Assembly (NCBI GenBank): GCA_036660635.1
Contig: JAVXAF010000003.1
Location: 1-42,077, forward strand
Source of the DNA: Clostridia bacterium
GTDB lineage: Bacteria > Bacillota > Clostridia > TANB77 > CAG-465
DNA: 42,077 nt
Direction: 5' to 3'
This document shows positions 10,270 through 39,004 of the stretch, piece after piece (within the stretch, counting starts at the first letter, position 1; each line of letters begins with the position of its first letter). The position numbers and the translations under genes were made by a program. The notes below the pieces were generated by a model, which worked only from the letters and a program-made list of their open reading frames with translations, was not told the DNA's origin and searched no databases.

Positions 10270-13200
10270 CTATAATTCAATTTTATCATTCATTTCAAAT
10301 GAATATATATATGAATTGCTCACTTTAAAATCAGTTAACTTTTCGATAGCCTCTTTATATATATCAAGTTGTTTTTTATATTTTTTAATATAGTATGAAG
10401 TTTTATTAGTTTTATCAGTCTTAAAATCTACAAGAATAACCTTTCCATCTTTTGTAATATAATATAGATCTATAACCCCTTGAATAATACTATTTGAAAA
10501 CTTATCATCTTTTAATACAAATGCTTCCTCTTTATATATTTTTTTAGATTCTTTTAATTCCTTTCCTATGCTTGAATTTAAAAAATTAAATATTTTATCA
10601 ATATTTATATAACTTGCGTCTTGTTTAGTTATTACATTTTTTGCTACTAAATCATTTATATATTCTTTTAAAGAAAGTTTATCATAAGTTTTTAAAAAAT
10701 CTAAATGTTCTAAAATAAAATGAATTAGTGTACCTTTTCTAACTGACGTGTAACTAATTTTTTCATCATTTAATACGCTTGGGACCCTGATATTTGTATT
10801 TAAATTTATTTGTTCTTTGGTATCAAATATGTTTTTTAGCTCATCTTCATCATTTGCTTTTTTAAGTTCACTTACACTCACTCTTTGTGGTGTATATGAA
10901 TCCTCTTTGAATTTATATTCTAAATTCAAATTGTTTTCTAAGCATTGAAAAAGTTTATTACTTTTCAAATTTAGATTACAGTTTTGTAATAAGTTTTCTT
11001 TTCTTTGTTTAATACTAATGTTAGTCTTATTTTTTATCTCTTTAAGATCAATACTTTTTAAAAACTCTTCAGATTTAACATTAATAACATTTATATCAAA
11101 AATAGACTTATCATTTATATCCTCTAAATAAATTTTTAAAGCAAGTAAAATATTATCAAAATAACTACTATTTTGTAAAACAATTCTTGGTTCTATTTTG
11201 TTTTTACTATTTAAAAGTACAGTTAAATTTTCTTTTTTCTTGTAATAATCTTGCACACTTGCAAAAATTATCAATTTTTCTTTTGCCCTAGTAAGCGCAA
11301 CATACAACATCCTTAATTCTTCTGACTTAGTTTCCTCAGTTATTTTTTGTTTAATTGCTTGTTTTATAACACTAGGATATGTAACATTTAAATCTTTATT
11401 AACAACATTTATTCCAATACCAAGTTCGTGATGCATATTTACACTTGCACTTGTATCTTTTAAATTATATTTTTTAGCAGTATCTGCAACTATTACAATT
11501 GGAAATTCTAATCCCTTTGATTTATGTATTGTCATAACTCTTACAACATCTTCATTCTCACCAAGTATTTTGACAGAAGAAGTAGAACTATCTGTTTTAT
11601 CTTTTAAGCTATCTATATAGTTTATATATGAATTTAGAGTACATGATATGTTTTTTTCAAATTTTTTAGCCAAATCTATCAATAAATTCAAATTTGCTTT
11701 TCTTTGAGCTGACATATTATCAGTCAAAAATTGTGTATAAATATTAGTTTGTTTATATAGTCTTATTAAAAGTTCGCTTACACTATATATTTTTGAATAT
11801 TTAAAAAATACAGCTAAAATATCCAGAAAATTATTTATTTTTGTAAGTAGTTTTTCCTCAATATTATTTCTTTTTTCTTTAGCTAACAAATTTTCTTTAG
11901 TATCTATTATATTTTCATATAAATATTTTTTTGTATCATTAGACCTAATATATACAAGATCATCAAGTGAAAATCCTCCAACAATACTATACATTACACT
12001 AACTAAATATATGTCTTGTAACGGATTATCGAGTATTCTTAAAAAGCAAAGCACTAGTTTTATTTCTTCACCTTCAAATATATTACTATATGCATCACAA
12101 AACACAGGAATTTCTTCTGATTTTAAAGCTTTTTCAATTATATCCGATCTAGTTTTTATACTTCTTAAAAGTATGGCTATATCCTTGTATTTTAAGCTTA
12201 CAAATTCATTTGTTTTTGAATTATATATTTTAAAATTTTCTTTTAATTCTTTTATTTTTTTTGCAATTAAATATGCTTCAGTTTCAAATGCCTTAAGTTC
12301 TTTTAAATAATTTAATGTTTCATCTTCATCACATTCTTCTTCATCCTCATTTTGATCTTTTAGTAAAAATGTTTCATCTTCTTTTAAATTTACAATATTT
12401 ATTTCAGTTAAATAATTATTTGTATTTAGTTTTGGAATATCTTTAAGTCCTACTTTTAACATTTCATAATTTGAATAATCACAATCTCCAACTTCCATTG
12501 ACATTATTTTTTCAAAAATATAATTAATACTATCTAAAACTTCCGCTCTACTTCTAAAATTTTTAGATAAACTGATTTTAATGTTTTTATCATCTTTTTT
12601 TAAATCAATGTTATTAATACTTTGATAAGTTGCATACTTACTATTAAAAATTTCTGGCATAGCTTGTCTAAATCTATATATGCTTTGTTTTATATCACCC
12701 ACCATAAATCTATTTTTACCGCCAGAAATCGCTTCTAAAATAGCTTCTTGGATAAAGCTTGTGTCTTGATATTCATCAGTATATATTTCAGAAAATTTAT
12801 TTTTTAAGTTTTCTGCTATAGCTGTAGGGAGCATTTTACCTGTATTAGATTTTATAACTAAAAGTTCAAATGCCATATGTTCAATATCATTAAAGTCTAA
12901 AAGATTAGCATCTTTTTTTAATTTCATATATTCTTCATTAAATCTAATAACAATGTTATATATATAATTTACATATTGATATGCAACCCTATTATCTTCT
13001 AATATTTTTTCAGACATTGAGTAAATACTTTTTTTCAAATTCTCTATAGTATTTTTTATTATTTTAGTTCTAAATGAATTGATTTTTTCTTTTATTTCAA
13101 TATTTTGCCCTTTATATGGTGCCATTCTTGAAAAAGATATTTCATTTAATAATGAGTATAATCTATCCCAAGAATTTTCATTTTTATCTATGCAGTTATT

Positions 13201-13998
13201 TATGTAATTTACATCTTGCAAAATAACATTTATTTGCTTTGAAAATTCCTCTGTTTTTTCTATAGTATTTAATAGTTCTTCTGTTTTTTTACTTACTATT
13301 TTAAGTTCATCAATAGCATTTTCAAAAATTTGTTTTCCAAAATTTGTATTTGTTAAATCAGTATTTAATTTTATATTATATTTTTCAATATTTTCACTAA
13401 GCCATAAATATGGATATGCAAAAGATTGTATATATGAATAAATATTAAAAATATACGCTATAAAATCATCATCTTTTCCAGAAAATAATTCTAATACATT
13501 ATATAAGTCAGAAGTAATCTCCAAATTATTTTTATTTTTTTCATCTTTAACAATAGTATATTGTGAATCTAATATTTTACTAATTGCTTTATTTTTTAAA
13601 ATATCACTTTGTGATTGATCACATATTGAAAACGCTGGATCAATATCTAATATATTAAAATTAGAACGTATTAATTCTAAGCAAAAAGCATGAATAGTTG
13701 TAATATTTGCTCTGTTTAAAAGAAGTACTTGACGTCTTAAAAAAAAGTCCTTTGGGTTTTCATCTAACTTTTTATATATTGCTAGAAGCAATCTTTCCTT
13801 AAGTTCTGCTGCTGCTGCATTTGTGAAAGTAACAACTAAAATTTTGTCTATATCAATTTTTTCGTTTATAACTTTATGAATTACTCTTTCGACTAATACT
13901 GCAGTTTTTCCACTTCCTGCTGAAGCAGATACCAAAATATTTTTCCCATACACATTTATTGCATTATTTTGCTCATTTGTCCATTTTTTATCTGCCAT
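10270..13998 (-). CDS. addA: ATP-dependent helicase/nuclease subunit A (AddA/RexA)
   Basis: 1242 aa. UvrD-type motifs 'VSASAGSGKTAVLVERV', 'TDEYQDTS' and 'MTIHKSKGLEFPIV', plus a C-terminal RecB-type nuclease block 'GVIDLYYITKDGKVILVDFKTDK...YKKQLDIY'. Confidence 0.85.
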   Translation of the reverse strand: MADKKWTNEQNNAINVYGKNILVSASAGSGKTAVLVERVIHKVINEKIDIDKILVVTFTNAAAAELKERLLLAIYKKLDENPKDFFLRRQVLLLNRANITTIHAFCLELIRSNFNILDIDPAFSICDQSQSDILKNKAISKILDSQYTIVKDEKNKNNLEITSDLYNVLELFSGKDDDFIAYIFNIYSYIQSFAYPYLWLSENIEKYNIKLNTDLTNTNFGKQIFENAIDELKIVSKKTEELLNTIEKTEEFSKQINVILQDVNYINNCIDKNENSWDRLYSLLNEISFSRMAPYKGQNIEIKEKINSFRTKIIKNTIENLKKSIYSMSEKILEDNRVAYQYVNYIYNIVIRFNEEYMKLKKDANLLDFNDIEHMAFELLVIKSNTGKMLPTAIAENLKNKFSEIYTDEYQDTSFIQEAILEAISGGKNRFMVGDIKQSIYRFRQAMPEIFNSKYATYQSINNIDLKKDDKNIKISLSKNFRSRAEVLDSINYIFEKIMSMEVGDCDYSNYEMLKVGLKDIPKLNTNNYLTEINIVNLKEDETFLLKDQNEDEEECDEDETLNYLKELKAFETEAYLIAKKIKELKENFKIYNSKTNEFVSLKYKDIAILLRSIKTRSDIIEKALKSEEIPVFCDAYSNIFEGEEIKLVLCFLRILDNPLQDIYLVSVMYSIVGGFSLDDLVYIRSNDTKKYLYENIIDTKENLLAKEKRNNIEEKLLTKINNFLDILAVFFKYSKIYSVSELLIRLYKQTNIYTQFLTDNMSAQRKANLNLLIDLAKKFEKNISCTLNSYINYIDSLKDKTDSSTSSVKILGENEDVVRVMTIHKSKGLEFPIVIVADTAKKYNLKDTSASVNMHHELGIGINVVNKDLNVTYPSVIKQAIKQKITEETKSEELRMLYVALTRAKEKLIIFASVQDYYKKKENLTVLLNSKNKIEPRIVLQNSSYFDNILLALKIYLEDINDKSIFDINVINVKSEEFLKSIDLKEIKNKTNISIKQRKENLLQNCNLNLKSNKLFQCLENNLNLEYKFKEDSYTPQRVSVSELKKANDEDELKNIFDTKEQINLNTNIRVPSVLNDEKISYTSVRKGTLIHFILEHLDFLKTYDKLSLKEYINDLVAKNVITKQDASYINIDKIFNFLNSSIGKELKESKKIYKEEAFVLKDDKFSNSIIQGVIDLYYITKDGKVILVDFKTDKTNKTSYYIKKYKKQLDIYKEAIEKLTDFKVSNSYIYSFEMNDKIEL

Positions 13999-14065
13999 AT
14001 TTATATTTATACAAAAAAATTGTATATCCCCTTTCTTTTTAATATTTTCATATTTTTCATATTTT

Positions 14066-15289
14066 TTATTTCATTTTATGTGCATTATCTAAAATCATAT
14101 TTTTAAGTAAAACATTTCCAGCATTATCTATTATTGCAACCTTTACTTTGGTTACCTCTTTGGGTAATTTTATTGTGACCATGTTATTTTTATCTAAATC
14201 TGCTTTTTTAGCTTTTGTTAACATATATTCTTCATTAAAATCGATAATATTCGAAAAATATGGTACTTCTATACCATTTAAATCTAATTTTGTTAAATAT
14301 TCATATCTTACATTTTTAATTTTACTACCTATAGTCTCATTTGCTAAAAAGGTTAGTGATTTTATATTTTGATATTGAATATATGAATAATCATCACCTA
14401 AATTTGATGATATAACATTATCATAGTTTTCTAAATTAATTCTATATGATCCAACATTTTTTCCAGCATTTTCTTTTATTATATCAATATATTTATTAGT
14501 TGTTATATTATTAAAATTTGTAATAGTACTACTAGGTATAGATGTAGTTAATAATGCTTTTTTATTTATATCTTCTAAACTATTAAAAAAGATATTAACT
14601 TCTATTCCAGATGTCACAAACTCATATTTTTCCGGATAGCTGCTAATTGTTAAATATAGCTTATCATTGGGTTGTAATCTTGAAGATATATTTATATTCA
14701 TTAAATTAGTCCATCTAGCATTATTTTTAGTGATATTAATTTTGCTATTGGTATTATTATCAATTGATATATTAGAGCTATCTAATGTTTCACCTTTTTT
14801 ATCGGTAAATTTTGCTATTTTAGAAGTAATTGAAAAATACATCATCGATTTAACTTTTATTCCTTTTAAATAATAAATATTAAACGAAGGGTATGAAACT
14901 ATATATATATCATCTGCAGATTTTTGTTCACTTACTTTATTTGGATTATTAATCTCTATTTTATTTAAATCTATTTCATAAAATGAAGATGCACTATCAG
15001 CTTTTAAATTTACCTCTTTTTCAAATTCAGTAACATTTGAACTAAGCAATATTTTTTTAACATCTTCAATAGTTAATGGATTTGTTCCATTAACAAAAGG
15101 AATAACACCATTTAATATATAATAACTTTTTACTGCATCTTCTAATTTTGTAATATCACTTGAAAAATTTACAAGTTTTGTGTTATTAGAACTATCATTT
15201 ATTTCTAATAATACAGCTGATGCTAAAATTATCATTACTATTATAGTAATAATTAATACAATAAGAGAAATACCTTTTTTATATATCAT
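14066..15289 (-). CDS. pilin-like (prepilin-type N-terminus, no Glu+5) surface protein, core-only paralog
   Basis: The N-terminus 'MIYKKG|ISLIVLIITIIVMIIL' resembles a class III signal. It shares the blocks 'DDIYIVSYPSFNIYYLKGIKV..YFSITSK', 'WTN', 'ENYDNV', 'IKNVRYEYL', 'MLTKAKKA' and 'IDNAGNV' with the ORFs at 15321-18065 and 24149-26371. Confidence 0.6.
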   Translation of the reverse strand: MIYKKGISLIVLIITIIVMIILASAVLLEINDSSNNTKLVNFSSDITKLEDAVKSYYILNGVIPFVNGTNPLTIEDVKKILLSSNVTEFEKEVNLKADSASSFYEIDLNKIEINNPNKVSEQKSADDIYIVSYPSFNIYYLKGIKVKSMMYFSITSKIAKFTDKKGETLDSSNISIDNNTNSKINITKNNARWTNLMNINISSRLQPNDKLYLTISSYPEKYEFVTSGIEVNIFFNSLEDINKKALLTTSIPSSTITNFNNITTNKYIDIIKENAGKNVGSYRINLENYDNVISSNLGDDYSYIQYQNIKSLTFLANETIGSKIKNVRYEYLTKLDLNGIEVPYFSNIIDFNEEYMLTKAKKADLDKNNMVTIKLPKEVTKVKVAIIDNAGNVLLKNMILDNAHKMK

Positions 15290-15320
15290 TTATTTAATTA
15301 CCCTTCTTTCTATAATTACA

Positions 15321-18065
15321 TTATTTTATTGGGCAAAGAACTACTCTATATCCAACATTATTGTCATTTGTTGTAGGAAGTGCCACAGATGAAAAACTTC
15401 CTGCTTGAGATGGTGTGGATTGTAAAACAAAGGGTGGATTTGTGGAATTAAATACTATATATCCTCCTCTTACAAAAAAGTTAAAATTATATTCACTATT
15501 TACTCCTCCACAAAGATCTTCGTTCCAACTCAAAAGATTATTATTACTTGACTGCACCTCATATGTGGCATCTCCAATTTTTGAATTGTTTATAGTAAAT
15601 ATTGGTGAGTCTATATCTTGGGGATATAAAGTAATATATTTGTTACTTTCTCTAAATATAGTATTTCTATCTGTAGCCGAAGCCATTGCTTCTCCTATTT
15701 TACTACTCATATCATATATTCCATATGGTGAGCCTGTTGACGAAAGAGCAGTATTTTTAGTATAAACTTCACTTTCTATATTACTTCCTCCGGAATATCT
15801 TGTATTATTTATATCTGTAGTTTGTGTACCTCTTCCATACTCGCTACCATATTCACTTCTAGAAAGATACGCAACAGCTCCCCACTCACTATTTTTCATT
15901 AAATGGCTGTCATAATCACTTAAGGAATTAAACAACGAATATTTTAATGCATTATTATATGAATTTTGTAATTCTATATTAGTCCAACATTCTAATGTAG
16001 GTTTGGAAACAGCTTTTAAAGTATTAGAAATATTAACATTCCCTGGTAAATTATTTGCAGCATTTAATTCTCCACTCATTTTATATTTTGATACCCAAAA
16101 TCCATCTAGTTCACTATCCCATCCACCATTTTTAAAAGAATTTATTGAATCATCTGTAAAGGCTGGATGAATAATATAATCACTTATAGTAGGTAAAGTT
16201 TGACTAGTTGGTATAAAGTTAATTTGTATTGTGCCATATGAAGATGATGAAATCATCTTCGGTGCTTGTATTATTTTATATTCAAACCTTGGTATCCATA
16301 CCCAATACGATCCATCTGGAGTTCTTGCATTTGCCCACATTTTACTTCCTTGCACTAAAGAATAATTATACCAATCTCCACTTCCTATCCTATTTTGTGG
16401 TACCTCATCCCATTTATTCGTAGATATATTATATTCTACTGGTATCATTCCATCCATTAATACAGGCTTATTTATGCCTTTATTATTATCCCAATCATCT
16501 GAAATATTGTTGATTCCATCAGTATCAATATCAAATTCAAATATTCTTGTGAAAATTTTTTTATCAGCTACATTTGTAGGATTATCTTTTGCTACAATTT
16601 TTATATAAAGTTTATCTGTTATATTTTTAATATCTAACTTTTCAAGATTTTGGATCAAAAATGTTTTCTCACTAATTGGCACATTTTTAATATCTGAATA
16701 TATATTAGTATATATATTATTATCTAAGCTTACACTTACACTTACATCTGATAAACCACTTTTTAAGCCAAATACTAGCGAATATCTAAGAATTTCTCCC
16801 TTAAAATATTTAACATTTAAACCAATATACATATTATCAGATGTATTTCTAATCATATTTATTTTATTTCCAGATTTATCAAATATATTTATTTGTATTC
16901 CTTCTATTTCTTTTGGTATTTCTATTTCAACATATCCAGAAGAAGATATTTTTGCTTTTTTTGCTCTAGATTTCATATATATTTCATCATACTCTGTTAT
17001 ACCAGAATAAAAGCAAGCAATTTCTCCTTTTTTATTATACTTTTTCAAGTACTCGTACCTTACCTCTTTAATTCCACTACTCTCATCACTTATTTTAAAA
17101 GATATAACATTTTTCATATCTGATATTTTAATAATTGTATCTTGATTGATAACTGGTGAAACATTATCATAATTTGAATATTTTACTTCAACTCTTCCTA
17201 CTTCTTCTCCACTTTTTTCTTTAGTAATTTCAATTTTTTTATCATTTAAGCTTGCAGATTCAAAATTTAGTTTATCAGATGCTAAAATACTAGTAGAGAT
17301 ACCTTTTGTAACTAGTTCATCAAATGTGTTAAAGGAAATTTTATTAGTTGACTTTTTTGTAGTATTTAGCTTTATTTTATTTCCACCTTGTATATATAAA
17401 TATAGTTCCTCTCCATCTTCTATATATGAATCAATAGTTAGATCTAAAGAATTTGTCCACTTTTTATTTAACTTTCTAACTGTTATGCCATTTACAGTTT
17501 GCACAGTAGTGCTACTATCTGATAAAGTATTCGTTTGATTTAACTTAGTTATATCTGAAATCTTCGAAGTAAAAGAAAAATATTTATTTTTATTTACTTT
17601 TATACCTTTTAGATAGTATACATTCATTGATGGATATGCAACCACATACACATCATTATTTTCACCTGATTTTTTATATCCTTTTTTAGAATTTGTAATA
17701 TCTATTTTTGACAAATCTATAAAATAAAATGCTCCTAACATTTCATTTGTATTTTTATCCAAATTTAGTTCAAGCTCTTGAGTAAATATATTCTTATCAG
17801 ATAATGGTATTAAATCCATTAAAGCTTTTTGTGAGATAGGCATTTCACTATCCAAATATGGTATTTCATCATTTTGTATATAATATGAAGATACTTGATC
17901 TTCAATAGTAGATATTTCTTCAGCAAAACTTACAAGTGCTGCATTATTTTTTGACGTATTTACACTAATTATAATAGCTGTTGTAAGTATTATAGTTATT
18001 ACTATTGTTATAACAAGTAAAATTAAAGATATGCCTAATTTTTTATCGCCTATTTTTATATTCAT
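15321..18065 (-). CDS. pilin-like modular surface protein, core plus large C-terminal FGE-sulfatase/C-type-lectin-like head
   Basis: I prefer the start ATG at 18065 (MNIKIGDKKLG|ISLILLVITIV...), which has AAAGGTGG 6 nt upstream. The track start is 18083. Core blocks are 'NDVYVVAYPSMNVYYLKGIKV..YFSFTSK', 'SNYDNVSPVI', 'SGIKEVRYEYL', 'MKSRAKKAK' and 'FDKSGN'. C-terminal region blocks are 'WVWIPRFEYKI', 'HPAF', 'DGFWVSKYKMS', 'HLMKNSEWGAVAYLSRSEYG', 'FFVRGG' and 'VGYRVVL'. Confidence 0.6.
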   Translation of the reverse strand: MNIKIGDKKLGISLILLVITIVITIILTTAIIISVNTSKNNAALVSFAEEISTIEDQVSSYYIQNDEIPYLDSEMPISQKALMDLIPLSDKNIFTQELELNLDKNTNEMLGAFYFIDLSKIDITNSKKGYKKSGENNDVYVVAYPSMNVYYLKGIKVNKNKYFSFTSKISDITKLNQTNTLSDSSTTVQTVNGITVRKLNKKWTNSLDLTIDSYIEDGEELYLYIQGGNKIKLNTTKKSTNKISFNTFDELVTKGISTSILASDKLNFESASLNDKKIEITKEKSGEEVGRVEVKYSNYDNVSPVINQDTIIKISDMKNVISFKISDESSGIKEVRYEYLKKYNKKGEIACFYSGITEYDEIYMKSRAKKAKISSSGYVEIEIPKEIEGIQINIFDKSGNKINMIRNTSDNMYIGLNVKYFKGEILRYSLVFGLKSGLSDVSVSVSLDNNIYTNIYSDIKNVPISEKTFLIQNLEKLDIKNITDKLYIKIVAKDNPTNVADKKIFTRIFEFDIDTDGINNISDDWDNNKGINKPVLMDGMIPVEYNISTNKWDEVPQNRIGSGDWYNYSLVQGSKMWANARTPDGSYWVWIPRFEYKIIQAPKMISSSSYGTIQINFIPTSQTLPTISDYIIHPAFTDDSINSFKNGGWDSELDGFWVSKYKMSGELNAANNLPGNVNISNTLKAVSKPTLECWTNIELQNSYNNALKYSLFNSLSDYDSHLMKNSEWGAVAYLSRSEYGSEYGRGTQTTDINNTRYSGGSNIESEVYTKNTALSSTGSPYGIYDMSSKIGEAMASATDRNTIFRESNKYITLYPQDIDSPIFTINNSKIGDATYEVQSSNNNLLSWNEDLCGGVNSEYNFNFFVRGGYIVFNSTNPPFVLQSTPSQAGSFSSVALPTTNDNNVGYRVVLCPIK

Positions 18066-18088
18066 ATTATACCACCTTTTCATTATAT

Positions 18089-19933: not shown

Positions 19934-21436
19934 TTATTTATTTTTTAAAATTTTCTTTGCTTTTGGCACTAGATTACTAGTAAAAAACTCAGCAATATTA
20001 TCTATCCCTTTAGTTGCAATTAATACCATTACCGGTATATAGTTTGCTATATATCTTGATCTTGTCTCCCAAAACAAAAAAAACAAAAAAACTCCAAAAA
20101 TAGTTATTGTTAAAATATTTGAATATTTATAATTTTCCTTTTCTTTTGATTTATTAAAACTTAAAACAGATATTATCATTAAAAGCAGCATTGAAATATG
20201 TTGTATTTGACTATAATATTTATATATATCATTTTTGCTTCCATTTTCACTAATATATTCATGCTGTATTCCTAGATTGGTTGGTTTTATTGATAACATA
20301 GTTTGAGCAAAATATGTACCCTCTCCCCAAGTATATACCAATTTACCTTTTATAAATTCATTGATATTTCCGTTTTTAATTAAATTAAATCTATATTTTA
20401 TAGTTTTATTTATCATATTTTTTTTAGCTTGATATGTTGGCATCATTTTTGTATTATTAAAATCCGAAGATTTATAACTTCCATTTCCCGTCATTCCCAT
20501 CATTATCCAATGAGTAATAGGAAATGAATTTTTTTCAAAACTATCTTTATTCCAATCTTTAAAAATCCCATAAATTAAATAATTAAATATTATAGTAAAT
20601 AAAATAAAAACAGTTATAAAAGAAATCATTAATGGTATAATCGTTTTAGTTTTATTATAAATTAAATGTACAATAAACATTGCAATCACAATAATTGCAA
20701 CAGTAGCTTTTATTTTTATTCCAATAAAAGATACAATAGCTAAAAAAACATATAATATATTTCTATCTATTTTTTTAGTTTTTTCACAAGCTATTAAATA
20801 TATATATAATATTAATATGGGAAATAACATTGAAAATGAATCAGTATATATTATTGGAACATATAAATAAATTGGAGTCATAAGTGCAATAAAAAAAAGT
20901 GAAATAATAGCATTTTTTTTACCATATAATTTTTTTGCACATAAATACATAAAAAATATTGCTATATCTATTAATATAATATTAAATCCCATACTTAAAC
21001 TATATGCTGATATCTTAAATAACTCAGCAATTATAAATATAAAAATAATAATCATTTGCATCGCTAAATTATTACTATAATTGTATAAATACTTTAAATC
21101 AAAAGCTGAGCCATGTATATATTTACCAGCATTATCAAATAAATCTTTTACATCCCAACCTGGTTCAACCCTATATAAATAAGCTGACATAATTTGCACT
21201 AATATAATTACAATAAAAACAATTGTAACAATTACTTTTGTATTTATTTTTACTTTTCCTTTTAAATAATATCCTATCAAACAAAAAATTAAAATATAAG
21301 AAAAAACTCCTAAAATAACTGGCAATGGCTCATATCTAAAAAACGTAACGTCATTAAAAAATATAGAGTTACAAACTATATATACAAAAACTATTACAAA
21401 CACTACATTAAAAAGTATAATTGATTTTTTTTTCAT
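19934..21436 (-). CDS. polytopic membrane protein, GT-C-fold glycosyltransferase-like (ArnT/PMT_2-like)
   Basis: 500 aa with roughly 12-13 predicted TM helices. It has an acidic first loop ('VEPGWDVKDLFDNA') and a larger soluble loop near residues 290-400, an architecture typical of GT39/GT83-type enzymes. The call rests on topology and motif impression only. A GGAGGA SD is present. Confidence 0.45.
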   Translation of the reverse strand: MKKKSIILFNVVFVIVFVYIVCNSIFFNDVTFFRYEPLPVILGVFSYILIFCLIGYYLKGKVKINTKVIVTIVFIVIILVQIMSAYLYRVEPGWDVKDLFDNAGKYIHGSAFDLKYLYNYSNNLAMQMIIIFIFIIAELFKISAYSLSMGFNIILIDIAIFFMYLCAKKLYGKKNAIISLFFIALMTPIYLYVPIIYTDSFSMLFPILILYIYLIACEKTKKIDRNILYVFLAIVSFIGIKIKATVAIIVIAMFIVHLIYNKTKTIIPLMISFITVFILFTIIFNYLIYGIFKDWNKDSFEKNSFPITHWIMMGMTGNGSYKSSDFNNTKMMPTYQAKKNMINKTIKYRFNLIKNGNINEFIKGKLVYTWGEGTYFAQTMLSIKPTNLGIQHEYISENGSKNDIYKYYSQIQHISMLLLMIISVLSFNKSKEKENYKYSNILTITIFGVFLFFLFWETRSRYIANYIPVMVLIATKGIDNIAEFFTSNLVPKAKKILKNK

Positions 21437-24094: not shown

Positions 24095-24134
24095 AAAATA
24101 CGCTTAATACAATATTTAGTATTAAGCGTATTTT
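24095..24134. terminator. bidirectional intrinsic terminator (Lon-like gene / third pilin-like gene convergent)
   Basis: Stem aaaatacgcttaatac (24095-24110) pairs with gtattaagcgtatttt (24119-24134). Confidence 0.6.
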
Positions 24135-24148
24135 TATATATATTTTTT

Positions 24149-26371
24149 TTATCTATTTAGATCATAATCTAATATAACTTTCCACTCGGGAGTTACAAGC
24201 TTTATGGAATATAACTTACCTTTAAAAAATCCATCTGACGCATCTCCTGATCTTCCTATATAATTTATACTTCTTGTGTCAGTAGAAATAGGATTAATAC
24301 CATACATCATTCCTGTTCCTGCTCTATCTATTGCTATATTATCTTTGTCTATATCTCCCCTATACCAGCCTGCTGTTCCTCCCTCACCTGTGCCACCTTG
24401 CACCCACCTTAAATAAAATTTAGCTTTTTTATTTAATTCAATTGCAGATGTACTTTTAGAGTATATATCTAAGTGAGCATTGTTATATGTATTTAATCTA
24501 AATAATATTTGTCCCGTATTTGCATAATTTTGAACATATATTGTATCATTGTTTTCACCAGAACCTAAGCTTAAAATTCTAGAATTATTATTAAATGCTT
24601 GCCAAGTTGCAACAAGCTCTACTCTCATTCCAGTTTTACTATTAATTGCAGCTGGAATCGTTGGTATTATTGCATAATCATCAATTCCATCAAATTCTAG
24701 CGCATACTTTCCATCAGGATCTTGAACAACTTTTAGCCCACTCATTAAATTAGCATCTAATCCGTTACCAGAATAATCTTTTAATATTTTATTTTCAATT
24801 GAAACTTTAAATTCACTTACAAGTTTTGGATTATCAATTGGCTCTACTTTTACTTTTACATCTTGTTTATTATATAATTTTTTACCTGTTGGTACAATTA
24901 GTTTAACTTTATTTGAATCATCATGTGCTGCATCTCCTGCTATTTTTGTTACAACACGATCATTAGTAGAGTTAACACCATTTAAACTAAAGTCCACATT
25001 ATCTACTTGCCCACCTATTGGATTTTCAATTGATACAGCATAATCGATATTTTTATTTGTATGAAAATCATTATCATGATTTTTTACAGTAAGCTCAAGC
25101 TCACTTGTTCCGTTTGAATTTAAAGTTACAGCATTAGTTGATATATTAGACTGAAATATATATGGTGAGTAATGAATGTTTTTTTGTGCATATAACATCA
25201 CATTTCCCGCCTTGTCAAAAACGGCAATCATAACGTATTTTGCTTGCGAAGAGAAATTAAAGTCAACATTAAAAGATGCATCTAACTTTGCTTTTTTTCC
25301 TCTTGATTTCATAAATTCTATATTATAAGTATTAATTAATACATTTTGATCTATATTAGGATCTAATACTGGGAAAAACCTAACTTCTTTTATACCACTT
25401 AAATCATCCTTTACTGCAAACTTTGTATTAACATTTTCTAAATTAAGTGTCATATTAATTTGATTATTTGTTATAACTGGTGCTAAATAATCATAATTTG
25501 ATATATCTATTTCTACTGTCCCAACTATTTTCGAATTTTCCTTTTTTGTAAATATAATCTTTTTTTTATCCTTTGCAAGTGTATTAAATTGTGTTTTAAA
25601 ACTTAAGATTTCTTGATCTGTAATAGTTAAAGCTCCTAATAATTTCATACTTTCTAAATCATTAATTTCAAAGTCATTAAAATTACTTGGTAGATTTAGT
25701 TTCCTTTCAACTCCATCTGGTAGAGTAATATATATTTCATCTGTCACATTTAAATATGCTGATATAGATATTCCAAAAGTATTACTCCAAACCTTGACTT
25801 TCTTTTTTATAGTAACCCCAGGCAAATTTTTTATAATAACAGGAGCTACTTCTTGTAGTTCTGGTTCTTTAATATTAATAATTTTTGATAGATTTTTTGT
25901 AAGGGAAAAATAAGTAGTTCCTTTTGCTTTTACCCCTTTTAAATAATATATATTCATAGAAGGATATGAAATTACATATACATCATTTTCTACTTTTTTT
26001 GTACCTCTTTTACTCTTTTTTACACCAAGTTTTTCTAAACTTATAACATAGTACTCTCCTTCTGTACCAGTTACAACTTTATCTTGATTTAATTCCATCT
26101 CTTTTAATATTAATTCTTTATTTTTATTATTTACTAAATTAATAATTCCATCTTGTGAAATTGGATTTATATCAAAATATGGCAACTCATTATTTTCATA
26201 ATAATAACTTTTACATTTTTCTTGTAAATCTGATAATTCTTTTGCAAAAGCTGTTAGTTTAGAATTATCTAAACTTTCTTTTACTCCAATTGTTGTCACA
26301 CTAAGAAGTATTAATATAACTACAATTGTTATTACAAGAACTATTAAAGAAATTCCTTTTTTTAATTTCAT
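24149..26371 (-). CDS. pilin-like modular surface protein, core plus C-terminal LamG/concanavalin-A-like lectin domain
   Basis: N-terminus 'MKLKKG|ISLIVLVITIVVIL'. Core blocks are 'NDVYVISYPSMNIYYLKGVKA..YFSLTK', 'SNYDYLAPVI', 'SGIKEVRF', 'MKSRGKKAK' and 'FDKAGNV'. The C-terminus 'KDYSGNGLDANLMSG...YALEFDGIDDYAIIP...GFFKGKLYSIKL' is a classic LamG-like jelly-roll (Laminin_G_3) signature. SD is GAGGT. Confidence 0.65.
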   Translation of the reverse strand: MKLKKGISLIVLVITIVVILILLSVTTIGVKESLDNSKLTAFAKELSDLQEKCKSYYYENNELPYFDINPISQDGIINLVNNKNKELILKEMELNQDKVVTGTEGEYYVISLEKLGVKKSKRGTKKVENDVYVISYPSMNIYYLKGVKAKGTTYFSLTKNLSKIINIKEPELQEVAPVIIKNLPGVTIKKKVKVWSNTFGISISAYLNVTDEIYITLPDGVERKLNLPSNFNDFEINDLESMKLLGALTITDQEILSFKTQFNTLAKDKKKIIFTKKENSKIVGTVEIDISNYDYLAPVITNNQINMTLNLENVNTKFAVKDDLSGIKEVRFFPVLDPNIDQNVLINTYNIEFMKSRGKKAKLDASFNVDFNFSSQAKYVMIAVFDKAGNVMLYAQKNIHYSPYIFQSNISTNAVTLNSNGTSELELTVKNHDNDFHTNKNIDYAVSIENPIGGQVDNVDFSLNGVNSTNDRVVTKIAGDAAHDDSNKVKLIVPTGKKLYNKQDVKVKVEPIDNPKLVSEFKVSIENKILKDYSGNGLDANLMSGLKVVQDPDGKYALEFDGIDDYAIIPTIPAAINSKTGMRVELVATWQAFNNNSRILSLGSGENNDTIYVQNYANTGQILFRLNTYNNAHLDIYSKSTSAIELNKKAKFYLRWVQGGTGEGGTAGWYRGDIDKDNIAIDRAGTGMMYGINPISTDTRSINYIGRSGDASDGFFKGKLYSIKLVTPEWKVILDYDLNR

Positions 26372-26403
26372 TATTTTACCTCGCTAAAATATTTATTAAC
26401 TAC

Positions 26404-26439
26404 ATTTTATATGTTTTTTAAAAATTTTTCAAGTCTTTT
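26404..26439 (-). promoter_or_regulatory. promoter of the third pilin-like gene (shared motif AAAAGACTTGAAAAAT)
   Basis: Minus strand reads aaaagacTTGAAAaatttttaaaaaacataTAAAAT, with a 17-nt spacer. The -35 context is identical to that at 18109-18124. Confidence 0.5.
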
Positions 26440-26450
26440 AACTAATAATT

Positions 26451-26518
26451 AAAAAAGGCTTAAGAATCTCTATTCTTAGCCTTTAGTATGTACGGTATTT
26501 AAATTTTAAATACCGTAC
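26451..26518 (-). terminator. tandem double hairpin terminator after the agmatinase-like gene
   Basis: The first hairpin on the minus strand is gtacggtatttaaa/tttaaataccgtac (26490-26518). The second is aaggcttaagaat/attcttagcctt (26455-26483), followed on the minus strand by T6. Confidence 0.45.
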
Positions 26519-26525
26519 AAAATAA

Positions 26526-34551: not shown

Positions 34552-35935
34552 TTATTTTATTATATTACTTAATGCTTCATCTATTGATTTTATACCAATA
34601 AGTTTAACATTTTTATCATTAATATTTTCTTTTACACTATCTATTTGTTTTTTTGACCCAAATATAGTTGTATACCCCATTTTAGTAACTTCTCTTACTC
34701 TTTTTTCAAAATTGTTAACACTTCTTATCTCGCCCGTTAAACCAACCTCACCAATAAAAACAGTTTTATTATCAATCTTTTTATTTTTATAGCTTGAGAC
34801 TATAGCCATAGCAACCGCTAAATCAACAGCTGGCTCATCTACTTTTATTCCGCCTATTACATTTATATATACATCTTGAGCTCCTAAACTTAAATTACAT
34901 CTTTTTTCAAGAACAGCTAAAATCATATTTAACCTATTTAAATCTATTCCATTTGCAACTCTTCTTGGCATATTATAGTACGAATGAGAAGTTAGAGCCT
35001 GTACTTCTAAAAGTATTGTAGAAGTACCTTCAACGGTTGCAACTATTGCAGTCCCTGGCAAATTATTTATACTATCTGATAAAAATACCTCTGACATATT
35101 AGTTACTTCTACCATACCTACATCTTGCATATCAAAAATTCCAATTTCGTTTGTTGAGCCAAACCTATTTTTTACACTTCTAATTATTCTATGAGAAAAA
35201 AATCTCTCGCCTTCCAAATATAATACGGTATCTACCATATGTTCTAATATTCTTGGCCCTGCTATTACTCCATCTTTGGTTACATGTCCTATCACAATTA
35301 CTGTGAGTCCTTTTCTTTTAGCAAGATACATAAGTCTTGCAGTCACTTCTTTTACTTGTGATATACTCCCTGGTACAGATGATATATCATCATCATACAT
35401 AGTTTGAATTGAATCAATTATGCAAAATTTAGGTCTACATTCCTCAATTTTCTCTTCAATTTGTAAAATATTAGTCTCAGATAGAAACAAAATATCTTCT
35501 GAAAACACTTTTAACCTATCTGCCCTTATCTTAATTTGAACTTCTGATTCTTCGCCAGACACGTACAAAACTTTACCATTTTTACTCAAATTAGAACATA
35601 TTTGCATTATAAGAGTAGACTTACCAATTCCTGGTTCTCCGTCCAACTAAAGTAAGGGAACCCTCAATTATTCCTGATCCAAATACTCTATTAAGTTCTT
35701 CATAACCTGTATCAATTCTAACTGTTTTTTCAACCTTTATTTCATTTAATTTTTTTAATTGTGATTGATTATCGAAAGTAGAAAAAAAAGATTTGCCCCC
35801 AGATTTAGTTGTAACTTTTTTATTTATTTTTTCTTCTACAAAACTATTCCAACTATTACAACCAGGACATTTTCCAAGCCATTTTGAGCTTTCATAGCCA
35901 CATTCTTTACAAAAAAATATTGTATTTGAAGTCAC
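34552..35935 (-). pseudogene. radA: DNA repair protein RadA/Sms, split by a 1-nt insertion in the Walker A codons
   Basis: The N-fragment carries the Zn ribbon 'FFCKECGYESSKWLGKCPGCNSW' and 'GSGIIEGSLTLVG', then goes out of frame. The C-fragment resumes '(G)EPGIGKSTL', 'VKNRFGSTNEIGIF' and a Lon-like C-domain. The minus strand reads GTT GGA C GGA GAA CCA GGA ATT GGT AAG, and the extra C is the plus-strand g at 35641. The probable start is the GTG at 35935, with GGGGGA 7 nt upstream. Confidence 0.85.
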
Positions 35936-35967
35936 TTTTTTATCCCCCAATTTCTATTATTTATTAT

Positions 35968-36317
35968 TGGTGGAGGTGGCGAGAATTGAACTCGCGTCCG
36001 AAAATCTATTCATACGAAATTCTCCGAGTGCAGTAAATGTTTAATTTAATACTACATTACTTTAACATTTACAAAAATATAAAGTAGTATGATTGAAATT
36101 ACCCACTAGTCTACAATCATAAACTAGATTCGTTTGCTAGATAAAATTATGCCTTTTAATACCCTCTAGCTAAATACCAAAAGACAGGCTACCAACTAGG
36201 CAGCGTATGCTAATTTATTGTCAGCGTTTATTTATTTTTCTCGCTTTTATAGTGGCCAACGAGAATCCACTACTCGCTATTCATACTTCAAAAAATCCGT
36301 CGATACCTTACACCCCC
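35968..36317 (-). ncRNA. ssrA: transfer-messenger RNA (tmRNA, SsrA)
   Basis: The 5' end GGGGGUG pairs with the 3' end CACCUCC-ACCA, including a G3:U wobble. The T-arm reads GGACGCGAGUUCAAUUCUCGCC. The internal tag frame GCT GAC AAT AAA TTA GCA TAC GCT GCC TAG encodes ADNKLAYAA*. The resume codon is inferred. Confidence 0.9.
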
Positions 36318-36434: not shown

Positions 36435-37085
36435 TTATTTAAAATCATTTAATGTTTTTCCAAAAGCTTCTTTGATTTCATCAAACATTGCTTTTGTTTC
36501 GTTTACCAGTAAATTACTAATATATCCCATTTCGATAGACTTAGTAAGCCAGTTAAACTCATCTAAATTGTCATAAATAACTTCGTTAAATTTTTTTTCA
36601 TTATATAAGTCTCTTTTTCTTTGCTTTATATATAGATTAACACCACATATCGAATTAGTAACCTGCATAGTCTCATTATCTCCCAAAGAAATCAAAGTAG
36701 CTTTTCTATATGAAGCTGCTTCAAAATACCTATAGAGAGTATCTGTTTTTTTATCCACATTATATAATGGATAACTAAGAGTTGATAAATCTTTTATCCT
36801 CCTAAAATATAACTCATTAAATTTATCATTTAACTCCTTATATAATGGATCATTTAAAAATCCATAGGCTGTATACTCAAATATCCGACCTTTATTTGCT
36901 AGATCTGCTTCTTCAAACAGAAGCTGATTTAGTTCAAATACATTAACGTCTGATAAAGGATTTTCATCCATGTAATGTAACACAGAGTCCATTTTTCTTA
37001 TCAGTTCATAAATTGTTCTTTCAAAGACAATCTTTGCGCTTTCAACTTTGTTATCTGATACCAATTTTTTTATTTCATCAAACAT
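36435..37085 (-). CDS. hypothetical protein (no family recognised)
   Basis: 216-aa ORF, soluble and predicted mostly helical. SD AAGGAGAAG lies 5 nt upstream, and the gene has its own consensus promoter and terminator. 'MFDEIK' occurs at both the N-terminus and near the C-terminus. Confidence 0.6.
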   Translation of the reverse strand: MFDEIKKLVSDNKVESAKIVFERTIYELIRKMDSVLHYMDENPLSDVNVFELNQLLFEEADLANKGRIFEYTAYGFLNDPLYKELNDKFNELYFRRIKDLSTLSYPLYNVDKKTDTLYRYFEAASYRKATLISLGDNETMQVTNSICGVNLYIKQRKRDLYNEKKFNEVIYDNLDEFNWLTKSIEMGYISNLLVNETKAMFDEIKEAFGKTLNDFK

Positions 37086-38197: not shown

Positions 38198-38323
38198 TTT
38201 TTTACACCTCCTCTAAACAAAAAAGTTTTTGTGTGACACTACCAAAGTTTTAAAGTGTCAAACAAAAACATAAATTTTTATTTGCTTTTAAAACCTAGGT
38301 AGGATTTATGGATTTTATTCCAC
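38198..38323 (-). promoter_or_regulatory. probable rplJ (L10) leader RNA
   Basis: A 126-nt rplA-rplJ spacer with stable stems on the minus strand (cagtaggtgg.../...cctacctag and tgacact...agtgtca). This is the position of the L10(L12)4 autoregulatory leader in Firmicutes. The covariance model was not evaluated. Confidence 0.45.
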
Positions 38324-39004
38324 CTACTGTCTTGGGCTTATTTTAATACCAGGTCCCATTGTTGTTGATACAGCAATAGACTTTAAGTATGTTCCTTTAG
38401 CAACTGCTGGTCTAGCTTTAACTACAGCATCAAGCAATGCATCGTAGTTTTGCTTTAACTTATCAGTTCCAAAAGATACCTTTCCTATTGGACAATGTAT
38501 TATATTACTTTTATCAAGTCTATATTCTATTTTACCAGCTTTTATCTCAGATATAGCTTTAGTTACATCCATAGTAACAGTACCAGATTTTGGATTTGGC
38601 ATTAATCCTTTTGGTCCAAGTAATTTAGCTATTTTACCTAAAGATGCCATCATGTCAGGTGTTGCAACAATTACATCATAATCAAACCAATTTTCAGTTT
38701 GAACTTTTTTGATCATATCATCATCACCAACAAAGTCAGCACCAGCAGCTTTTGCTGCTTCAGCTTTATCTCCTTTAGCCAAAACTAATACTTTTTTAGA
38801 TTTACCTGTTCCGTTTGGAAGTACTATAACACCTCTAACTTGTTGATCAGCTTGTTTTGAATCAACACCTAATTTTATATGCATCTCTAAAGTTTCATCA
38901 AATTTTGCTTTAGGCATACTAAGTGCTAAATCAATAGCTTCTCTAGATTCGTAAAGTTTACCTTTTTCAAGTAACTTTGCGGCTTCTTTCATTCTTTTGC
39001 TCAT
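38324..39004 (-). CDS. rplA: 50S ribosomal protein L1
   Basis: '[14 protein letters not shown]....DQQVRG', 'LPNGTGK' and '[12 protein letters not shown]' are L1 blocks. Confidence 0.95.

Follow-up and report, generated by a model that had tools for sequence, protein, structure and literature searches.

What kind of protein is encoded by a gene that stands among housekeeping genes, begins in the manner of a prepilin and ends in the manner of a lectin? The question is raised by protein A, the product of one gene in a 42,077-nucleotide stretch of DNA from a Clostridia bacterium (assembly GCA_036660635.1, contig JAVXAF010000003.1; hereafter the window), which also encodes two paralogs, B and C. 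Our results show that A ends in a LamG/ConA-like jelly roll, and its N-terminal module is pilin-like by profile comparison. We regard it as moderately probable that A is a surface-displayed modular protein of the type IV pilin kind: its leader would be cut after Gly6, and its LamG head, most plausibly placed at the outer end of a short filament or pseudopilus, would bind a ligand, either a glycan or a protein.

Fold of the protein A head

The initial annotation had read a textbook LamG_3 signature in the C-terminal domain. The quoted motifs are indeed present, but their textbook status was overstated, since the Pfam model of LamG_3, PF13385, misses A: it gave no match to the whole protein at E<=1, nor to the isolated 219-residue C-terminus at E<=10, and by its gathering score A is not a member.

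The relationship was recovered with profiles. We searched 1.84 billion representative proteins with a head profile built from A and two orthologs and obtained 778 relatives at E<=1e-3; among the top ones P0072 (1.5e-12), P0073 (5.3e-16), P0081 (1.7e-6) and P0098 (3.7e-9) carry PF13385 on the matched stretch. A 34-sequence alignment of the head, searched against the PDB, matched one solved structure, 4qvs_A (E 7.6e-8), collinearly over ~180 residues, and Pfam assigns the matched segment to LamG_3 at 1.8e-24. When this alignment was compared by hhalign with the Pfam-validated LamG_3 domain of P0041, the probability was 97.2% (E 3.2e-11). The A head is homologous at the profile level to validated LamG_3 domains, and the conserved columns of its alignment, FDGxDDY, NYxG and FxGxxY, are core motifs of the LamG_3 type.

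We also modelled the head with AlphaFold2. With the 34-sequence alignment the model reached a predicted local distance difference test score (pLDDT) of 90.6 and a predicted template modelling score of 0.88, as against a pLDDT of 36 with the 3-sequence alignment; it is all-beta, with 15 strands and no long helix, and forms a two-sheet beta-sandwich of the LamG/ConA type. Foldseek found 88 matches to this model in the PDB at E<=1e-3. Laminin G, agrin LG and neurotoxin Hc-N head the list, which also includes laminin alpha2 LG5, the lectin-like Hc-N domains of the botulinum and tetanus toxins, NTNH, PAPP-A and NEL. The minor pilin PilC of Streptococcus sanguinis (7oa7) appears at rank 47 (E 2.9e-4, template modelling score 0.44, 8% identity). 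The match to 4qvs, the hhalign comparison and the model all agree that the C-terminal ~210-220 residues are a LamG/ConA-like jelly roll, as had been proposed.

A jelly roll of this superfamily could in principle be catalytic, in which case the domain would be a glycoside hydrolase or lyase and A a surface-tethered enzyme. The ConA-like superfamily includes glucanases and lyases, the alginate lyase 3gne is found at rank 48 of the fold matches, one viral fold match is named a hydrolase, and relatives of A bear enzyme-like heads, for example FGE-sulfatase-like ones. However, in both sequence and fold the head comes closest to LamG-type modules without catalytic function (4qvs LamG_3, laminin G, agrin, neurotoxin Hc-N), no GH16-type ExDxxE motif was seen on reading the head sequence, and the conserved columns are those of the LamG_3 core. 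We consider a catalytic head quite improbable; by analogy with related modules, the head of A would bind a glycan or protein ligand.

LamG and ConA-like domains are also common in phage structural proteins, and a viral structure library yielded 257 matches to the head at E<=1e-3, the top ones of which are named ConA-like or LamG jelly rolls. The A gene might accordingly be that of a phage-derived or otherwise mobile receptor-binding protein. This origin was rejected on a scan of 2.9 million viral contigs, in which no relative of the family was found; in addition, the housekeeping synteny murE-speB-A-lon is kept in the ortholog locus, and the G+C content of the gene equals that of its flanks (~26-27% in the window). 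We regard it as extremely improbable.

Separately, an RGD tripeptide (Table 1) is invariant in A and in the orthologs P0002 and P0003. It lies inside a Gly-rich insertion, GGTGEGGTAGWYRGD (residues 659-673), which is absent from the other LamG heads of the subfamily and is the part of the model with the lowest confidence (block mean pLDDT 64). With three orthologs at ~55% identity, the conservation of the RGD may have little meaning.

The pilin-like N-terminus and the missing Glu5

The leader of A reads MKLKKG followed by ISLIVLVITIVV and is common to B and C. We compiled 145 non-identical leaders of the family, with lengths of 3-29 residues. Gly at position -1 is invariant (145/145) and is mostly preceded by K, Q, S, R or N, and the positions that follow it are restricted to I/V/M/L (+1), S/T (+2) and L/M (+3). 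A thus shows the short basic leader ending in Gly and the 21 hydrophobic residues expected of a class III signal; it fails in the Glu expected at mature position +5, where it has Val. Judged by these residues, A begins with a class III (prepilin-like) signal in degenerate form, a point that the initial annotation did not make.

To place the module as a whole, we searched a profile of 29 sequences covering residues 1-172 (profile A5) against the PDB. The matches are almost exclusively type IV pilins and pseudopilins: PilE1 of S. sanguinis (8pfb_G, E 2e-5, positions 8-112, 27.7 bits) and geopilin (9egp_A, E 2.4e-5, with the leader Gly aligned with the prepilin Gly at -1), followed by GspG (0.012) and, more weakly, by TcpA, Neisseria PilE, PilA and MshA. 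Matches that share a transmembrane helix alone, such as Vpu and DPP6, scored 12-15 bits compared to 27.7 for PilE1, indicating that part of the signal comes from the amphipathic alpha1-C segment (A..DL..I..A...YY..N...P). Homology to solved pilins therefore extends beyond the hydrophobic stretch. In concordance with this result, NCBIfam gives weak GspG and ComGC matches, and three relatives are named PilE by JGI. We conclude from these comparisons that the N-terminal module of A is pilin-like.

On the other hand, a number of results weigh against reading A as a pilin that is assembled. The residue at +5 across the 145 members is Val (95), Ile (23), Ala (11), Met (7), Ser (4) or Thr (3) and never Glu, and Glu5 is normally needed for pilin assembly. 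Part of the score of profile A5 is due to the hydrophobic helix. A has no match to Pfam N_methyl (PF07963) or TIGR02532, and PF07963 gives weak matches in 4 of the 29 family N-termini (best E 0.017); these models miss A because the leader pattern is degenerate and +5 is never Glu. Finally, regular-expression motif scans of the window and 58 other loci (835 kb), which may miss divergent genes, detected no Walker box of the GspE/PilB/TadA type, no prepilin peptidase GxGD motif and no canonical Glu5 pilin, and the precomputed Pfam assignments of the neighbours of family genes comprise housekeeping genes only. Genes for such machinery may lie elsewhere in the genome.

Such results would also be expected if A were a membrane-anchored surface protein outside any filament, its helix being an uncleaved signal anchor or a cleaved but membrane-retained one, its stalk lifting the LamG head past the cell wall, and its likeness to pilins being a remnant. 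Three results argue for this alternative: the scans of 59 loci, which hold more than 80 family genes, revealed no assembly machinery close to any of them, Glu5 is missing family-wide, and the N-terminus escapes the standard pilin models. The long multi-domain stalk, too, suits a wall-spanning anchored protein. What it leaves unaccounted for are the invariant Gly and the K-G-I-S/T-L motif before the helix, which look like a processing site and would be superfluous for a plain anchor; the stand-alone pilin-sized members described below, which have nothing to display; and the pilin homology that reaches past the hydrophobic stretch into alpha1-C. We therefore hold plain anchoring to be possible but rather doubtful, and prefer the reading of A as a modular pilin-like protein.

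A shared stalk with exchanged heads

The paralogs B and C lie in tandem, 6 kb away from A and on the same strand. A and B share 35% identity over 371 residues (A residues 29-390, E 1e-61), A and C 31% over 417 residues (E 4e-33), and B and C 37% over 412 residues (E 2e-56); the A-C and B-C matches remain once the first 45 residues are removed. In the three-way alignment 76 columns are invariant, all of them before or near residue 390 of A. The leader and core blocks that the initial annotation had seen in all three proteins are thus real, and the common N-terminal region of ~390-415 residues goes far past the hydrophobic leader.

The stalk of A is beta-rich. Its C-terminal part (residues 293-402) is weakly Ig-like, with matches to DUF7743 (E 2.7e-5), Big_3_2, Big_6 and the Ig-like domain of Bap (7dm0), all of which are below curated thresholds. 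An Ig-like spacer had been proposed to follow the core; for residues 416-520, no significant match was found in Pfam or PDB profile searches, and weak Ig-likeness is seen in the preceding stalk instead.

Beyond the stalk the paralogs differ. C has no head, as had been stated. For B, the suggested FGE-like head finds weak, transitive support: the head shares 34% identity (E 4e-40) with the P0071 head, and the latter has a weak match to the FGE-sulfatase family PF03781 (5.9e-4, below cutoff), while B itself has no PDB match by sequence and no direct Pfam match. The head of B may thus be FGE-like.

We then considered the family elsewhere. The 71 homologs of A all come from metagenomes or metagenome-assembled genomes labelled Clostridia or Bacilli bacterium. 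P0002 and P0003 (735 residues, 48-49% identical, 100% coverage) are the only ones that match the full length including the head, and P0002 is found in the same murE-speB context as A. Scans of species-representative genomes and metagenome contigs gave 56 further loci, among them Clostridium sp. CAG:465 and CAG:921 as well as numerous gut assemblies from human, rabbit and chicken. The outcome depended on the query: on genome contigs a single protein retrieved none and a family alignment 22 loci, and the A5 alignment was too variable for locus scans. The interval between tsaE and addA, which holds B and C in the window, carries two to four family genes in relatives.

To compare the heads, we clustered the last 230 residues of the 112 non-identical members that have a post-stalk region, since clustering of the whole post-stalk region merged 101 of the 112 through a further domain that many of them share. 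The 13 groups obtained include an FGE-sulfatase-like end in 72 of the 112 (with PF03781 matched directly in several), an end with a terminal motif resembling that of B (13), a canonical LamG_3 end of the P0041 type (6), an end after a second beta domain (5), the A-type LamG head (3) and an ice-binding-like end (2; PF11999 at 2.7e-50), and several giant proteins of 862-2395 residues have ends that look like beta-helix repeats. In addition, eight other family members have a precomputed PF03781 match, and one relative joins a CBM_2 head, a recognised carbohydrate-binding module, to the family N-terminus. LamG-type heads have been acquired at least twice in the family. The proposal of a same stalk with different heads is therefore well supported by sequence across the 112 relatives, the heads being FGE-like, CBM_2, LamG, ice-binding-like, beta-helix or none. 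A, with its LamG-like end, and its relatives have the recognisable C-terminal domain, not specific to pili, by which modular pilins are defined.

Open reading frames of 149-164 residues, comprising the leader and the whole module only, are found directly beside long members (Table 1). In L061, for instance, the order is tsaE, 904 residues, 740 residues, 161 residues, addA; the window itself has no pilin-sized member. A profile of four such proteins retrieved 71 clusters, mostly of 139-178 residues and some on contigs of up to 771 kb. The existence of stand-alone members indicates that residues 1 to ~165 form an autonomous module of pilin size.

The A-type head subfamily is not confined to this N-terminus. 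It occurs on other pilin-like N-termini, including that of a canonical TIGR02532 prepilin, P0123 (3.9e-6), and on many proteins with KGITLIAL-type leaders, likewise without Glu5. As further observations, A-type heads are found as tandem pairs in proteins of 500-800 residues, many of them with Glu5-less KGITLIAL-type leaders (among P0072-P0077 and P0079-P0087), and in giant proteins of 3,000-7,000 residues as many as 13 stretches are matched.

A second group of proteins (113-987 residues) has the same KKGISLIVLIITI leader and a different next region (ILAGA..NNPI.SAK). Its genes are intermixed with the family loci, at L066 (2931..5828 and 12896..15856), L014 (3046..3387) and L027 (7695, forward strand). 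Many different substrates may thus pass through a single system of targeting or processing.

With regard to its expression, the A gene follows murE and speB and faces a convergent lon-like gene, in a window in which the housekeeping genes include mfd, ligA, addA, tsaE-tsaB-rimI, the lon-like and speB-like genes, murE, uppS, radA and ribosomal protein genes. The promoter assigned to it (26404-26439) is present as a site; this type of match is barely above chance in such AT-rich DNA, with 28 found and 21.2 +/- 4.3 expected. The two hairpins between the speB-like gene and this site are likely a terminator that insulates A from the murE-speB unit. The hairpin on the other side, between A and the lon-like gene, stood up to our folding analysis, and its bidirectional role as a terminator is that of a candidate. 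Taken together, the promoter-like match and the flanking hairpins make a separate, monocistronic transcription unit plausible.

Table 1 Features of protein A, its paralogs and pilin-sized relatives, and further features of the window. Positions refer to the window unless another locus is named.
Feature	Position	Strand	Remarks
Protein A coding sequence	24149..26371	-	740 residues plus stop; from the list of open reading frames
Shine-Dalgarno GAGG of protein A	26382..26379	-	7-nt spacer before the ATG start; read from sequence
Leader MKLKKG	26354..26371	-	Short, basic, ends in the invariant Gly; putative prepilin-peptidase site after Gly6
Hydrophobic segment	26291..26353	-	Residues 7-27 (21 residues); equivalent to pilin alpha1-N; +5 is Val
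Pilin-like N-terminal module	25856..26371	-	Residues 1-172; 29-sequence profile matches pilins
Stalk common to A, B and C	25127..25855	-	Residues 173-415; paralog alignment
Weakly Ig-like part of stalk	25166..25495	-	Residues 293-402
A-specific spacer	24812..25126	-	Residues 416-520; aligns only among A, P0002 and P0003
LamG/ConA-like jelly-roll head	24152..24811	-	Residues 521-740; profile relatives, 4qvs_A, hhalign, AlphaFold2 and Foldseek
RGD	24353..24361	-	Residues 671-673
Sigma-70-like promoter match	26432..26404	-	TTGAAA-17-TAAAAT; 10/12 positions; well placed; best on that strand
Two hairpins, the second followed by a U-run	26451..26519	-	-30.4 kcal/mol, z -6.7, 0/200 shuffles as stable; downstream of speB-like gene, upstream of promoter match
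Hairpin with 16-bp stem	24095..24134		Pattern scan and fold: -20 kcal/mol, z -8.4; between lon-like gene and A
Paralog B	15321..18083	-	920 residues; A-like leader, pilin-like module, stalk; possible distant FGE-sulfatase-like head
Paralog C	14066..15289	-	407 residues; leader, pilin-like module, stalk; no head
Pilin-sized member, L059	8411..8869		Next to long modular members
Pilin-sized member, L060	9497..9988		Next to long modular members
Pilin-sized member, L061	10001..10486		Next to long modular members
Pilin-sized member, L062	10001..10450		Next to long modular members
PMT_2 protein	19934..21436	-	500 residues, multi-pass membrane protein; E 1.2e-6, above cutoff
radA, C-terminal and N-terminal fragments	34552..35646; 35621..35950	-	Split at ~35641
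Transfer-messenger RNA gene	35968..36317	-	Rfam 141 bits; ARAGORN tag peptide ADNKLAYAA; just upstream of radA N-terminal fragment
216-residue open reading frame	36435..37085	-	Between transfer-messenger RNA gene and rplL
Ribosomal protein L10 leader	38210..38354	-	RF00557, 55.3 bits; ahead of rplJ-rplL

Other features of the window were recorded alongside. The protein with a PMT_2 match (GT-C type protein mannosyltransferase/ArnT-like glycosyltransferase) is encoded between rimI and lon, in a position that separates the two paralog loci, and could glycosylate the surface proteins. The corresponding spot in syntenic relatives is occupied by a 113-residue open reading frame with the same leader in L014, by a 966-residue one in L066 and by nothing in L061. 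The radA gene is split by an apparent single extra C: the reading SLTLVG(R)RTRNW, followed by a stop, would become SLTLVGGEPGIGKSTL without it, and the split reflects an error of assembly or else a true frameshift. The transfer-messenger RNA gene, the L10 leader and the 216-residue open reading frame are listed in Table 1.

Protein A compared with known modular pilins

Based on these results, we propose the following course for protein A. Its gene would be transcribed alone, as the promoter-like match and flanking hairpins suggest, and the N-terminal helix, judged by its composition, would enter the membrane. A prepilin-type peptidase, the gene of which would lie in another part of the genome, would then remove the leader by cutting behind Gly6, and the head would be displayed outward: A would either form the uppermost subunit of a short pilus or pseudopilus, perhaps one built with pilin-sized members, or stay anchored by its helix. 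There the head may bind a glycan or protein ligand in the gut, as LamG/ConA-like modules elsewhere do, including that of PilC. A position at the tip is suggested by the family-wide absence of Glu5 in combination with the bulky head, as has been argued for GspK and for PilA and PilC of S. sanguinis. Cleavage, filament assembly, the tip position and ligand binding are what we infer for A.

The closest known design is that of PilC, which consists of a pilin moiety, an Ig-like module and a glycan-binding ConA-like lectin, and which has been modelled at the pilus tip together with PilB and the Glu5-less PilA (PMC9934059). The comparison with its lectin module made in the initial annotation is apt: both proteins run from a pilin moiety through a beta module to a C-terminal ConA-like jelly roll, both would be too bulky except at a filament tip, and 7oa7 is among the fold matches of the head. 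The two proteins nevertheless show no detectable sequence homology, as PilC is not among the sequence-profile matches in the PDB and shares 8% identity with the head in the fold alignment. In PilC, moreover, the class III signal is canonical and includes Glu5, and the gene belongs to a pil operon with the machinery, whereas A lacks Glu5, has a conserved stalk of ~250 residues and stands alone between housekeeping genes.

Modular pilins are numerous. An InterPro census counted more than 1,200 of them, with PF13385 among the frequently grafted modules (PMC8179133), and those that carry it resemble A in that a pilin-type N-terminus is fused to a LamG_3-type module (Raynaud et al. 2021, PMC8179133). 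The census proteins were collected by InterPro IPR012902 together with a second signature (PMC8179133), whereas A matches neither N_methyl nor PF13385 and belongs to a family with its own stalk. As both models fail on A, the family escapes the census.

A subunit without Glu5, of the GspK type, has been argued to cap the filament (PMC9934059), and subunits of this type, like S. sanguinis PilA, share with A a missing Glu5 after a prepilin-like leader. In those systems one capping subunit lacks it; in the family of A every member does, even the pilin-sized ones, and no Glu5 partner pilin was seen nearby in the regular-expression scans. For the head, the closest solved relative is 4qvs, an S-layer domain-containing protein with a LamG_3 domain; its carrier is of the S-layer type and has no pilin-like N-terminus, and the A head differs by its Gly-rich RGD insertion. 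Modular pilins as a kind are thus already described; what the family of A adds to them is a variant that lacks Glu5 and has a separate stalk.

A further comparison concerns TANB77, an uncultured gut order with a conserved Tad-like cluster (CpaB, TadZ, CpaE, TadA, TadBC) and several 'pilin-like' proteins with a single transmembrane helix, one of which has 621 residues and resembles minor pilins in its first quarter; these proteins were reported to stimulate TLR4 and to improve anti-PD-1 responses in mice (PMC11680825). Like A, they come from uncultured gut Clostridia with small genomes and have one N-terminal transmembrane helix (Kim et al. 2024, PMC11680825). Unlike A, they are encoded in the Tad-like cluster, and since they are likened to A by description alone, the comparison serves as a lead only. 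A bolder and in our view unlikely extension is that the KKG-I-S/T-L leader marks an undescribed, wholly Glu5-less branch of type IV filament-like systems in uncultured gut Clostridia with reduced genomes. Pilin-sized members would there form a filament or short stalk without the Glu5 salt bridge, proteins of the A, B and C type would cap it with swappable heads, and the machine would be distant, possibly the Tad-like cluster of TANB77, with a possible overlap between the family and the TANB77 pilin-like proteins.

In B, C and many relatives the anchor and stalk are conserved and the head is exchanged. Judged by sequence, the family may therefore be a collection of binding proteins that differ in their ligands, conceivably adhesins as the initial annotation suggested. 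It shows the modular pilin design in abundant uncultured bacteria of the gut Clostridia type, and neither the standard pilin models nor those of LamG detect it, so that proteins of this sort are undercounted at present. What is unusual is the combination of features: no member has Glu5, the genes are dispersed among housekeeping loci in which the scans found no assembly machine, pilin-sized members stand beside long ones, and the heads are highly diverse. The family thus offers testable candidates for host- or glycan-binding proteins of organisms known from metagenomes only. If the lineage is TANB77, the reported link between pilin-like proteins of that order and the response to immunotherapy would make surface proteins of the A type obvious candidates to consider.

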